Shown: one piece after another, positions 15,768 to 17,289 of the stretch
How positions within the stretch are numbered: the stretch's first letter is position 1
Layout of the letters: every line of letters begins with the position of its first letter
Sequence record: OQ845958.1
Strand: one strand, 5' to 3'
Length of the DNA: 64,000 bases
DNA from: Escherichia phage pEC-M719-6WT.2
Made by a program: the position numbers and the translations under genes
Notes under the pieces: model-generated
Told to the model about the DNA's origin: nothing
Databases searched by the model: none
Seen by the model: only the letters and a program-made list of their open reading frames with translations

Positions 15768-16100
15768 ATGAACATCAAAACTTACAACGAGTTTTTAGCC
15801 GAATCCGCCATCAATGAGACCAAATCAATTGATGATAGTGAAGGCTCTCTGAAATTTGGTTTAACCAAAAATGCAGATGGTGTTTTCTTTCAGATTGGTA
15901 ATGAACGTTTTCAAACGTCCAAATATTCCAAAGCTGCAGTTGAAGCTGTCCTGAAATCGGGTGGCAAGTGGAAAGGCAAAGAAGGTACTAAAGAAATTGG
16001 TATCGCTGTTGACGGCGGTATGGCTTATTTTAAAATTGGCGATGAACAATTTATTATGTCTGCTCGCGGACGTAAAGAACTGGCAAAACTTTATAAATAA
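15768..16100 (+). CDS. internal-protein-like protein with capsid targeting sequence
   Basis: N-terminus MNIKTYNEFLAE| resembles T4 IP capsid-targeting leader MKTYQEFIAE with L-x-E protease site. Confidence 0.7.
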   Translation: MNIKTYNEFLAESAINETKSIDDSEGSLKFGLTKNADGVFFQIGNERFQTSKYSKAAVEAVLKSGGKWKGKEGTKEIGIAVDGGMAYFKIGDEQFIMSARGRKELAKLYK

Positions 16101-16108
16101 GGTTTCTT

Positions 16109-16381
16109 ATGAAAACTTTCAATGAATTTTTCAACGAGTCACAACTGAATGAAGAAGTAAAAATTAGTAAAGCGGTCAAAGCTATGATTGACAATATCAA
16201 TCACTTGTATAGCATTGACTTAACTGACCATATAACAATTGGCAACAAACGCAACTTTTTCGCGTTTGACATTTCAGAACTTGACCAGAACCAAATTAAT
16301 AACATTGAGCGCTTCGCCAATGACAAGGGTCTCCGTCATGAGACAGCTGGTTATAAAAAATACGCAATTTATCTAAAATAG
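16109..16381 (+). CDS. internal-protein-like protein with capsid targeting sequence
   Basis: N-terminus MKTFNEFFNE|. Confidence 0.7.
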   Translation: MKTFNEFFNESQLNEEVKISKAVKAMIDNINHLYSIDLTDHITIGNKRNFFAFDISELDQNQINNIERFANDKGLRHETAGYKKYAIYLK

Positions 16382-16389
16382 GATTTCAA

Positions 16390-16689
16390 ATGCAAACGCT
16401 CCATGAATTTTTGGTAGAAAACAATTACCTGGCAGAAGCAAAAACCTGGCCTCTGGGCCTTCAGAAGAAAAACACCTACAAATGGGTTGACTTCAAAGGT
16501 AAAGGCGACGCTGAAGACTTTGACCAGCTGCGTAAAAATGGTTATACCTTCCTTGACTCTAATTATAACAAAATTACCTCTTTTAGTCAGAAATCAAGCA
16601 TTGCTTTCATTGAAACTGGTAAGAACACCCCTAAAAATATCACTGACGACTTCGCTGCTTATGGCGTAATTCGTGGTAGTAAGATGTAA
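16390..16689 (+). CDS. internal-protein-like protein with capsid targeting sequence
   Basis: N-terminus MQTLHEFLVE|. Confidence 0.65.
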   Translation: MQTLHEFLVENNYLAEAKTWPLGLQKKNTYKWVDFKGKGDAEDFDQLRKNGYTFLDSNYNKITSFSQKSSIAFIETGKNTPKNITDDFAAYGVIRGSKM

Positions 16690-16735
16690 TTAACAAAAGG
16701 GGATAATTATCCTCTTTTTATGGCTTGGAGACAAC

Positions 16736-16978
16736 ATGAAAACTTATCAAACATTTATAACAGAATCTTCCCATGGTATGGAAGTTAAACTTGGTCAAGC
16801 CCTTGCTGAAGCAGAGCGCCTGTTTGCACGTATCAAAGAACTTGCTGATTCAGTAGACGCATCATCTTTTAAAGGCGACCAGGGTAAAGTTAAAGCTCTC
16901 CTTGCTCTTTGTTCCGATGCAGGCGAGATTGCTAAGAACGGCACCAAGATGAAAAAACGTCTGGAAGACTTAAAATAA
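16736..16978 (+). CDS. internal-protein-like protein with capsid targeting sequence
   Basis: N-terminus MKTYQTFITE|; own promoter/leader cassette upstream. Confidence 0.7.
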   Translation: MKTYQTFITESSHGMEVKLGQALAEAERLFARIKELADSVDASSFKGDQGKVKALLALCSDAGEIAKNGTKMKKRLEDLK

Positions 16979-17034
16979 AGTATACGCGATGGGATAACTG
17001 CAGTATAATTATCTCATCAACTACTGGAGACAAC

Positions 17035-17289
17035 ATGAAAACTTATCAAGAATTTATTAACGAAGCCGCAGATGCAAAAGTTGAGTTTGCTTATGTTGGT
17101 TCCCCGCGTGGTAGTTTTTCTAATGAGGAATTGCGCCGTTCACTAGACAACTTCATGCAGTTAAGTGCTGAAGTATCGCATGATGGTCGCTATGACATCG
17201 TTACCATTAAAGGTTCTGAAGACCTTATCAAAAAGTGGCACAAGCAGAAAGATGTTGAGATGCGTTACTATCGTATCCCTAAAAAATAA
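17035..17289 (+). CDS. internal-protein-like protein with capsid targeting sequence
   Basis: N-terminus MKTYQEFINE|; own promoter/leader cassette upstream. Confidence 0.7.
   Translation: MKTYQEFINEAADAKVEFAYVGSPRGSFSNEELRRSLDNFMQLSAEVSHDGRYDIVTIKGSEDLIKKWHKQKDVEMRYYRIPKK

Follow-up and report, generated by a model that had tools for sequence, protein, structure and literature searches.

The closest described relatives of the genes treated here are the internal head proteins (IPs) of phage T4 and other T-even phages. In T4, IPI, IPII and IPIII are encoded after 57B and around e/denV, and give rise to small, mostly basic mature proteins. Their precursors start with a capsid-targeting sequence (CTS), which reads MKTYQEFIAE in ipII and ipIII and is longer in IPI (MKTFKEF...ITE; ipI starts MKTFKEFTSTTTPVSTITE), and carry an (L/I)-x-E site for the prohead protease gp21. 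In the CTS of IPIII, positions 4 and 7 serve targeting and positions 8 and 10 serve processing (PMC9026906). T4 Ip1, Ip2 and Ip3 inhibit variants of GmrSD, and each IP reportedly acts on its cognate enzyme alone (PMC12373910). Bas37_0260 of Escherichia phage KarlGJung, encoded at the ipI locus and 78% identical to VR7 ip6, is a packaged, CTS-bearing inhibitor of McrBC (bioRxiv 10.1101/2025.11.20.689424). Further proteins, Ip4 to Ip10, have been named in T-even phages (RB32, RB69, T2, T6, VR7, SP18), where they likewise form a tandem array at the ipI locus with short flanking direct repeats, a 43-bp repeat being noted in the RB32 annotation. A polymorphic, multi-gene ip locus has been on record since Repoila et al. 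(1994), as cited in PMC12373910 and PMC4122927. More distant parallels are DarA, DarB and Hdf of phage P1 and the ejection proteins of phiKZ and SPN3US, which are also loaded into the head, delivered with the DNA and active before gene expression, and in the giant phages the prohead protease similarly cuts after Glu; in contrast to the IPs, these proteins are unrelated in sequence, much larger and directed by other targeting signals.

The window, that is the whole stretch of 64,000 nucleotides analysed here, derives from a Gaprivervirus (VR7/SP18 group) that is 97.8% identical to phage ECML-359. It contains eight open reading frames, all on the + strand, with a T4-type CTS and a gp21-type (L/I)-x-E site. 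As the first-pass annotation had proposed from the N-termini, five of these follow one another at the ipI position (15768-17289), which is evident from both the ORF listing and the sequence; their leaders read MNIKTYNEFLAE, MKTFNEFFNE, MQTLHEFLVE, MKTYQTFITE and MKTYQEFINE. The three additional genes are also present, at 19433-19816 (MLTYAEFLNRNTITE) after the tRNA genes, and at 28726-28995 (MKTYQEFLAE) and 29516-29815 (MKTYQEFITE) on either side of denV. A six-frame scan with all start codons detected the same leader at these eight positions and nowhere else in the window; the e.6 homologue, the sole extra match under a looser pattern, was judged a false positive. The assignment to the ipI position agrees with synteny to T4 (gene 1, 57A, 57B, ipI, trna.4 ... 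nudE, e, ipIII, ipII, denV). Seven of the eight genes are located in the ipI locus (57B to trna.4) or the ipII/ipIII locus (e-denV-vs.8). The exception is 19433 (genes are referred to by their start coordinate), although RB69 also has a CTS gene, ORF149c, in the region after the tRNAs. Directly upstream of the array lies the anti-CBASS gene Acb1 (Pfam E 1e-59), which places the array in an anti-defence neighbourhood.

The N-termini, the T4 synteny and the membership of six proteins in PHROG families of internal head or virion proteins (phrog_7673, 2667, 3499, 8111 and 8765) together make it very likely that all eight genes encode T4-type IPs, as had been suggested from the leaders. These six are the homologues of Ip9, Ip5 and Ip7, the Ip6-like and RB69 ORF125c-like proteins, and the member of phrog_8765; outside are 15768, in a family of unknown function (phrog_3966), and 19433, which has no family. 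Compared with T4, the eight mature parts are not homologous to IPI, IPII or IPIII, there are eight genes instead of three, and one occupies an extra locus after the tRNAs. The combination of cassettes also differs from that in the phages with Ip4 to Ip10, where 16109, 16736, 29516, 17035 and 16390 have direct homologues, and 15768 and 19433 correspond to no named Ip in any record examined. Scans of all eight proteins against Pfam and NCBIfam yielded nothing above threshold, and PDB sequence searches with six of them gave no significant match. Some GenBank records label these genes, or small ones next to them, as 'profilin', 'homing endonuclease' or 'prohead core protein'; such labels were dismissed as automatic-annotation noise.

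The array opens with 15768 (15768..16100, 110 aa; leader MNIKTYNEFLAE/S, with the slash marking the putative cleavage point), a candidate internal protein of the VR7 gp156 family. Its mature part is an internal duplication with a predicted Whirly/PUR-like fold, in which two repeats of four strands and a helix form a whirly-like sheet (predicted structure, moderate confidence). The protein may thus bind nucleic acid. Whirly, PUR-repeat and MRP1-MRP2 proteins are binders of single-stranded nucleic acid; 15768 is only 8-13% identical to them and much smaller (98 aa). Paralogy of 15768 and 28726 was considered and rejected (E 1.7); a partial phrog_3966 match is mostly driven by the leader. The second gene, at 16109..16381 (90 aa), encodes an Ip9 homologue (phrog_7673 'internal head protein', E 1.7e-56) that is 85% identical to RB32 Ip9 and is named ip9 in VR7, VR25 and ECML-359. 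The third, 16390..16689 (99 aa; phrog_2667 'internal head protein', E 2.9e-20; leader MQTLHEFLVE/NNYLAE/), resembles RB69 ORF125c and VR7 gp127, to both of which it is 36-37% identical. The fourth, 16736..16978 (80 aa; phrog_3499, E 2.4e-41), is 90% identical to RB32 Ip5, and its leader MKTYQTFITE/S is a derivative of the 15-aa Ip5 leader of RB32 and Bas37 (MKTFKEFATKTTITE/S), shorter by five codons, as apparent from a 15-nt gap in the DNA alignment.

The last gene of the array, 17035..17289 (84 aa; leader MKTYQEFINE/A), encodes an Ip6-like protein (phrog_8111 'internal virion protein', E 1.6e-15), a diverged Ip6 at 38% identity. It is the only one of the eight with homology to a demonstrated inhibitor: its mature part is 41% identical to that of Bas37_0260 over 59 aa (E 6e-11). 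As this identity is only moderate, the specificity of the two proteins may differ. The AF2 model of 17035, built from a 4-sequence alignment, was too poor for a fold search (pLDDT 60, pTM 0.46).

Of the genes outside the array, 19433 (19433..19816) encodes a candidate internal protein of 127 aa with a mature pI of 10.1 and a long leader, MLTYAEFLNRNTITE/S, similar to those of T4 IPI and RB32 Ip5. No match to PHROG, Pfam or NCBIfam was found for it, and its homology to RB69 ORF149c, which lies in the same region and has a similar leader, is confined to the leader. The gene occurs in 15 phage records with E. coli or Yersinia as hosts, all at least 99% identical, where it is called 'hypothetical protein' or left unannotated; those records examined more closely are Gapriverviruses. 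An exhaustive HMMER search retrieved two remote relatives, P0017 (47%) and P0018 (41%), which start with MYTFKEFLVE and MKSFKEFMLSE, respectively. P0017 is on a T4-like contig and is followed by the same DUF7277/DUF7275 gene as 19433. As these relatives carry CTS-like leaders of their own, 19433 appears to mark an unannotated IP family at a third locus.

The gene at 28726..28995 (89 aa; phrog_8765 'internal virion protein', E 4.6e-37; leader MKTYQEFLAE/SVLNE/) is situated in the gap between e (lysozyme) and denV. It is found in 42 phage records, in most of those listed overlapping or adjoining the lysozyme gene, from T4-like phages of Pectobacterium, Enterobacter, Edwardsiella, Serratia and Erwinia. 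Six records are at least 99% identical, and the four of these among the matches listed are Escherichia phages. The eighth gene, 29516..29815 (99 aa; phrog_2667, E 1.7e-42; leader MKTYQEFITE/A), is an Ip7 homologue, 97-99% identical to VR7 ip7 and SP18 gp122 and 47% identical to RB32 Ip7.

When compared with relatives, the number and arrangement of the genes, which had been regarded as unusual, prove ordinary. Six Gapriverviruses have 8, 8, 8, 7, 7 and 6 CTS genes (those with eight being VR7, ECML-359 and DK-13), RB69 has seven, RB32 four and T4 three. Eight is therefore normal for the genus and T4 is a low outlier. In VR7, sequenced about 2010, the annotation already shows five genes in tandem at the ipI position and three after denV. 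The description of the genes as a diversifying arsenal applies to the distal cassettes, which are swapped between phages, and not to the first two genes, 15768 and 16109, which are 98-100% conserved across the genus. The cassette content varies among Gapriverviruses while the flanks are conserved. Judging from these sequences, diversity here is a matter of gain, loss and replacement of cassettes and not of fast point divergence. The claim of unrelated mature parts behind conserved leaders held up: BLAST and phmmer runs on pairs of mature parts found nothing significant, the lowest E being about 0.01 for a database of 8 sequences. The phrog_2667 profile links 16390, 29516 and, weakly, 17035.

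If the eight products behave like the IPs of T4, the leader of each precursor, about 10-15 residues with an aromatic or hydrophobic position 4 and Phe7, would confer affinity for the gp22 scaffolding core of the prohead. Protease gp21 would then cut after the (L/I)-x-E at the end of the leader, and the small, mostly basic mature protein would stay in the head with the DNA. On infection, it would be ejected into the cell ahead of or with the genome, before phage gene expression. The most probable role of at least the variable IPs would then be the binding and inactivation of host nucleases directed at incoming modified DNA, the known targets being type IV restriction enzymes, e.g. GmrSD and McrBC. 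Packaging, cleavage, injection and anti-restriction activity are what we infer for all eight; in the searchable literature we found neither a virion proteome of a Gaprivervirus nor direct proof that any IP of the genus is present in virions, cleaved or injected. The genes for gp21 and gp22 lie outside the window; in VR7, of the same genus, genes 67, 68, 21, 22 and 23 are annotated at 99309-103064. This interpretation is accepted knowledge (Repoila 1994; Bair 2007; Silas 2025). Since IPs are delivered with the DNA and act before phage gene expression, they are first-line counter-defence factors and a natural protein-delivery system. Targets are known for only four IPs; eight candidates in one phage, one of them a homologue of an McrBC inhibitor, are thus a useful list for anti-defence screening and for the choice of therapeutic phages. 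The general picture does not change, as multi-gene ip loci with shuffled cassettes were already known from T-even phages in 1994 and GenBank contains these exact genes. The new points are modest, namely that 15768 and 19433 deserve the IP label, that the 19433 family defines a third ip locus and that 15768 may be a nucleic-acid binder.

Injection as an anti-defence function, put forward in the first-pass annotation, keeps its place as the leading hypothesis. Several observations count against it. Genes for dCMP hydroxymethylase and glucosyltransferase are absent in Gapriverviruses (VR7 annotation; PMC8056088, PMC12115623; the window ends inside gene 43), so that, in contrast to T4, these phages do not have the glucosyl-hmC pathway against which the GmrSD targets of IPI-III act, and the lack of homology to IPI-III weighs in the same direction. 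It is possible, if rather unlikely, that some or most of the eight are packaged IPs that act inside the capsid, in DNA charge, condensation or packaging, in head morphogenesis or in coating and protecting the entering DNA, and are not defence inhibitors. The mature parts are basic in seven of the eight (pI 8.8-10.1), each IP is present in T4 at about 300 copies and heads assemble aberrantly in IPIII mutants (PMC9026906), and lysines of IPs touch DNA phosphates (PMC3012670). The predicted single-stranded nucleic-acid-binding fold of 15768 suits a role on DNA no less than one in enzyme inhibition, and the constancy of 15768 and 16109 within the genus, together with the 51-71% identity of 15768 to proteins in other genera, is unlike that of arms-race cassettes. 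However, all four IPs of determined function (Ip1, Ip2, Ip3 and Bas37_0260, the last a homologue of 17035) are specific inhibitors of type IV restriction enzymes. Moreover, IP genes are individually dispensable and their presence or absence varies among close relatives, which is unexpected for a structural role, and the confidence of the 15768 structure prediction is only moderate.

The two functions could also be divided within the array, in which case its members would not all be inhibitors of type IV restriction enzymes. The two conserved genes at its start (15768 and Ip9) would supply a nucleic-acid-binding module, injected to accompany the entering genome or to shield it. The variable cassettes and the 19433 family would be directed at defences matched to a putative cytosine replacement of Gapriverviruses. 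We regard this combination as unlikely; if true, the IPs would point to new pairs of defence and anti-defence beyond GmrSD and McrBC.

Quite improbable, in our estimate, is that functional IPs are made by just some of the eight genes, with 19433 and/or 16109 escaping packaging or processing. In six genes a canonical (L/I)-x-E is present at residues 8-10 (10-12 in 15768), and in several a second such site follows 5-6 residues beyond the first. The placement of the cleavage site near residue 10, as described earlier, holds for the other genes and fails for 19433, where ITE is found at residues 13-15. The latter gene also has Leu2 and Arg10 instead of Lys2 and Glu10, and no database family. Gene 16109 departs from the L/I-x-E rule in having F-x-E (FNE) at residues 8-10, and its mature part is acidic to near neutral (pI 6.3) where those of the others are basic; both points count against the IP reading for this gene. 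Gene 16390 is decaying in SP18, where its counterpart is a pseudogene. Nevertheless, Ip9, the family of 16109, is a named one, and residues 13-15 of 16109 read LNE, a canonical site. The 15-aa leader of 19433 equals the RB32/Bas37 Ip5 leader at 9/16 positions (first mature residue counted), including TITE/S, and is similar to that of T4 IPI (19 aa); the relatives of this gene have CTS-like leaders, and a late promoter lies 32 nt upstream.

The leader itself also speaks for the assignment of all eight as IPs. Phe7 is found in 8/8 leaders, position 4 is occupied by Y in six, by F in one and by L in one, and Glu10 is present in 7/8, the eighth being 19433; the positions that are functional in the IPIII CTS (4, 7, 8 and 10) are thus conserved in the window. 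Between leaders, nucleotide identity averages 0.68 over the pairs, compared with 0.35 for the 30 nt that precede them and 0.36 and 0.26 for the sequence that follows. Thr3 is kept in 8/8 leaders through the codons ACT, ACG and ACA, and a hydrophobic residue (I/L/F) at position 8 through six different codons. The constraint is at the protein level and begins at the ATG. It is therefore extremely improbable that the shared N-terminus is a nucleotide-level feature (a translation-initiation region or recombination patch) of small, otherwise unremarkable early proteins without capsid targeting, as could be argued from direct repeats of 40 and 37 nt over the ribosome-binding site and first codons and from early-type promoters before several of the genes, given also that the same residues direct targeting and processing in T4 experiments (PMC9026906) and that a CTS-like leader of different sequence persists in the relatives of 19433, which are 41-47% identical to it. 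Such an artefact had been named beforehand as a finding that would overturn the assignment, and the data disfavour it.

The cassettes themselves would consist of a promoter and hairpin, a ribosome-binding site and the conserved leader, short shared sequences that would allow gain, loss and exchange between related phages. Scanning the window for the early-like promoter motif GT[AGT]TAC-N16-19-TAT[AT]AT gave 8 matches, all on the + strand, against 0.30 expected; four are at ip loci, three before ip genes and one before trna.4, and the associated hairpins have z values of -1.5 to -3.5. Upstream of the first ip gene lies GTGTAC-N18-TATTAT (15703..15742, +), with a hairpin (-13.7 kcal/mol, z -2.9) that has the -10 box in its loop; this promoter was also recovered in a sigma-70 scan. 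The first unit of three genes ends at a terminator-like hairpin, AAAAGGGGATAATTATCCTCTTTT, followed by a T run (16695..16718, +; -10 kcal/mol, z -3.3). A second promoter with hairpin, GTATAC-N18-TATAAT (16980..17009, +), is part of a 31-nt direct repeat, whose copies at 17003-17033 and 17312-17342 flank the 17035 cassette, and a 40-nt direct repeat comprising ribosome-binding site and leader occurs at 16726 and 17025. The distal boundary of the array is formed by GTGTAC-N17-TATAAT with hairpin, before trna.4 (17290..17318, +; -10.9 kcal/mol, z -3.5), while the promoter upstream of the Ip7 gene, GTGTAC-N18-TATAAT (29456..29485, +), has a weak hairpin (z -1.75). The exact T4 late-promoter consensus TATAAATA is found 10 nt 5' of the Ip9 start codon (16092..16099, +) and 32 nt 5' of the 19433 gene (19394..19401, +). 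Because exact copies are not enriched (7 in the window against 5.2 expected), these two are only suggestive.

Promoter-early stem-loops (PeSLs) are reportedly the subject of work by Arbiol in 2010. In the PeSL cassettes of Comeau (2014; PMC4122927), a stem-loop is joined to a promoter of the T4 early type and to a Shine-Dalgarno sequence immediately 5' of the start codon; such cassettes recur from one small gene to the next in a hyperplastic region and are tied to cassette exchange. The elements of the window may be comparable, but they have the -10 box in the loop or the 3' arm of the hairpin and not downstream of the stem-loop. From genome comparison we infer that recombination probably takes place at these promoter/hairpin sites. 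A strict DNA pattern for the leader retrieved 39 stretches among 2.9 million viral contigs; the contigs concerned measure 62-175 kb, mostly 155-175 kb (T4 size), bar one fragment of 14.4 kb.

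The window comes from a phage of T-even type that falls in Gaprivervirus (VR7/SP18 group, Straboviridae); positions 15000-18500 share 97.8% identity with Escherichia phage ECML-359, and 19 records span at least 80% of this region. The gene order is that of T4 in reversed orientation. The matching order starts with gene 1 (dNMP kinase, 14335-15012) and continues with 57A, 57B (15248-15703) and, directly downstream, five small genes (15768-17289). These are followed by trna.4, trna.3, two tRNAs (18792-18944), a block of small ORFs, nudE, e (28226-28717), a small gene (28726-28995), denV (29051-29467) and another small gene (29516-29815).

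The first-pass annotation reported variants of the T4 capsid-targeting sequence (CTS) at the start of eight genes, here named by their start coordinates (15768, 16109, 16390, 16736, 17035, 19433, 28726 and 29516). The reported N-termini match the sequence exactly, and the leader, looked for at all start codons in six frames, occurs at no ORF other than these eight, each of them on the + strand. The sole extra match of a looser leader pattern, a homolog of e.6, was a false positive. Both ipII and ipIII of T4 start with MKTYQEFIAE, and T4 ipI starts with MKTFKEFTSTTTPVSTITE.

That the leaders resemble each other through an artefact of translation initiation is made very unlikely by their codon variety, the confinement of identity to the leader and the positions conserved. 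Thr3 is invariant and encoded by three codons, Phe7 is likewise invariant, and position 8 is I, L or F, with six codons used. Averaged over all pairs, nucleotide identity reaches 0.68 within the 30-nt leader, compared with 0.35 over the 30 nt before it and 0.36 and 0.26 over the two successive 30-nt blocks after it. In the IPIII leader, residues 4 and 7 were shown experimentally to act in capsid targeting and residues 8 and 10 in processing by gp21, which cleaves after L/I-x-E (PMC9026906), and these are the positions conserved in the window. The leader similarity is a constraint at the protein level. Pairwise comparison of the eight mature parts gave no significant similarity, in line with the original description of conserved leaders on unrelated proteins; seven of the eight mature parts are basic (pI 8.8-10.1), the exception being Ip9 (pI 6.3).

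Six of the eight genes fall in PHROG families labeled internal head or virion protein. Gene 16109 encodes Ip9 (phrog_7673; 85% to RB32 Ip9), 16390 a member of the RB69 ORF125c family (phrog_2667), 16736 Ip5 (phrog_3499; 90% to RB32 Ip5), 17035 an Ip6-like protein (phrog_8111), 28726 an internal virion protein (phrog_8765) and 29516 Ip7 (phrog_2667). Gene 15768 belongs to the VR7 gp156 family (phrog_3966, "unknown function"), and 19433 has no PHROG, Pfam or NCBIfam family. Each of the eight proteins has a counterpart in sequenced Gapriverviruses at 94-100% identity; no homology of any of them to T4 IPI, IPII or IPIII was found. The genus possesses the machinery needed to read the leader, as genes for gp67, gp68, the gp21 protease and the gp22 scaffold are carried by its member VR7. 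Judged from sequence, family membership, the retained leader residues and gp21/gp22 support the assignment of the eight genes as internal proteins (IPs). The interpretation in the first-pass annotation follows the accepted view and is supported in part. Both this type of feature and these particular genes were known before; what the analysis adds is an IP assignment for 15768 and 19433, a connection between 17035 and an McrBC inhibitor, and a fold prediction.

While the identity of the genes as IPs and the hypothesis of an anti-defense role hold, the suggestion that their number and array are unusual does not. CTS-leader ORFs were counted in the homologous region of ten phages: the window and the Gapriverviruses ECML-359, VR7 and DK-13 each have eight, EAWsc9 (Gaprivervirus), P8 (Gaprivervirus-like, in a record without genus) and RB69 (Mosigvirus) seven, SP18 (Gaprivervirus) six and one pseudogene, and the Tequatroviruses RB32 and T4 four and three. 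T4 is the low outlier among the phages counted. The VR7 annotation also places five tandem genes at the ipI position (gp156, ip9, gp154, gp153, ip6) and three after denV (ip10, gp127, ip7), and RB32 carries an Ip5-Ip9-Ip7 tandem annotated as "flanked by 43 bp direct repeat".

The ORFs counted group into 17 families. The first two array genes (gp156 and Ip9) are constant within the genus (98-100% identity), whereas the distal cassettes vary: a 99-aa gene, Ip5 and Ip6-like in the window, ECML-359 and EAWsc9; a 99-aa gene, a 92-aa gene and Ip6 in VR7; and Ip5, Ip6-like and a 73-aa gene in P8 and DK-13. Diversity thus arises via cassette exchange, not rapid point divergence. The SP18 ortholog of 16390 (SP18 15412-15666), annotated as misc_feature, lacks leader and start codon and illustrates how an IP cassette can decay among Gapriverviruses.

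The window holds eight copies of a T4-early-like promoter motif (GT[AGT]TAC-N16-19-TAT[AT]AT), all on the + strand (15703, 16980, 17290, 29456, 40575, 43176, 46362 and 51476), versus 0.30 expected by chance. The first four lie at ip loci, each with its -10 box inside a hairpin. A terminator-like hairpin (16695-16718) closes the first three-gene unit, and the 17035 cassette is bracketed by a 40-nt direct repeat comprising ribosome-binding site and leader (16726 and 17025) and a 31-nt direct repeat (17003 and 17312). Exact copies of the late promoter TATAAATA, a motif not enriched overall, precede 16109 by 10 nt and 19433 by 32 nt. The cassette elements are similar to PeSL cassettes, for which a role in the modular shuffling of hyperplastic regions in T4-like phages has been proposed, with explicit mention of the ip locus (PMC4122927). 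Leader shuffling is directly visible in Ip5, whose odd leader in the window, MKTYQTFITE, is explained by the deletion of five codons when compared with MKTFKEFATKTTITE, the 15-aa leader of RB32 and Bas37 Ip5.

The IPs whose targets are known all act as inhibitors of type IV restriction enzymes. T4 Ip1, Ip2 and Ip3 each block their own GmrSD variant without cross-protection (PMC12373910), and the CTS-bearing Bas37_0260, from the ipI locus of phage KarlGJung (Bas37, MZ501089), blocks McrBC (bioRxiv 10.1101/2025.11.20.689424). Bas37_0260 is an Ip6-family protein (78% identity to VR7 ip6), and its mature part is homologous to that of 17035 (41% identity, E 6e-11), making 17035 a candidate McrBC-type inhibitor, although the specificity of IPs is reported to be narrow. 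The gene just upstream of the array, 57B, is the anti-CBASS phosphodiesterase/nuclease Acb1 (Pfam PF23474, E 1.2e-59), which places the array in an anti-defense neighborhood; 57B and the ip genes form a putative contiguous anti-defense block. Many GenBank records still label 57B "RNA ligase" or "hypothetical".

A caveat on a simple anti-type-IV reading comes from the missing hydroxymethylcytosine (hmC) and glucosylation genes. In the VR7 annotation (NC_014792, 16000-52200) no gene 42 (dCMP hydroxymethylase), alpha-gt or beta-gt is found at the T4 positions, and the dCTPase gp56 is present; this absence is read from VR7, the window ending inside gene 43 at about 62-64 kb. Gapriverviruses are described as without hmC synthase yet retaining dCTPase, DenB and Alc, and a non-canonical base replacing cytosine has been inferred for them (PMC8056088, PMC12115623). 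The nature of such a replacement would determine which restriction enzymes the IPs face.

Like 19433, 15768 is not labeled as an IP in public records. Its family has members in Edwardsiella phage PEi20 and in Salmonella phage STP4-a that start MKTY; in Gapriverviruses the start is MNIKTY (15768-15776, ATG AAC ATC AAA). Apparently the former ATG has changed to ATC and the start now lies two codons upstream, which suggests that the CTS tolerates a short N-terminal extension. An AF2 model (12-sequence alignment; pLDDT 76.7, pTM 0.64) predicts a helical leader and a disordered region around the cleavage site, followed by two repeats, each made up of four strands plus a helix.

Gene 19433 occurs in 15 phage records (at least 99% identity; hosts Escherichia and Yersinia; those inspected are Gapriverviruses), and none of these records gives it more than the label "hypothetical protein". 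Among 5.8 billion proteins, a word-indexed search turned up one cluster; exhaustive searching of 1.84 billion representatives with HMMER yielded two remote relatives (47% and 41% identity). These start MYTFKEFLVESELDLITE and MKSFKEFMLSE, and so have CTS-like leaders of their own; one lies on an uncultured T4-like contig where, as in the window, the DUF7277/DUF7275 gene is found downstream. With the first mature residue counted, the 15-aa leaders of 19433 and RB32 Ip5 agree at 9 of 16 positions, TITE|S among them. There is good evidence, at the level of sequence, that 19433 represents an unannotated IP family at a third, post-tRNA locus. RB69 ORF149c (RB69 22622-23062, 146 aa, MKTYAEFLTEAAK...), CTS-bearing, in the post-tRNA region and not annotated as an internal protein, brings the RB69 count to seven and shows that other phages too place a CTS gene there; the mature parts of ORF149c and 19433 are unrelated.

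The DUF7277/DUF7275 protein (25199-26182, 327 aa; E 1e-27 and 8e-76) is conserved in VR7, JS98, RB69 (ORF134c) and the uncultured contig, and is called "nucleotidyltransferase" in one record; the ORFs after it (26242-26928 and 26928-27515) gave no Pfam match. Adjoining 19433, a DUF7338 protein (19906-20460, E 1e-62) with an N-terminal hydrophobic segment is variously recorded as "holin" or "amidase-6 domain".
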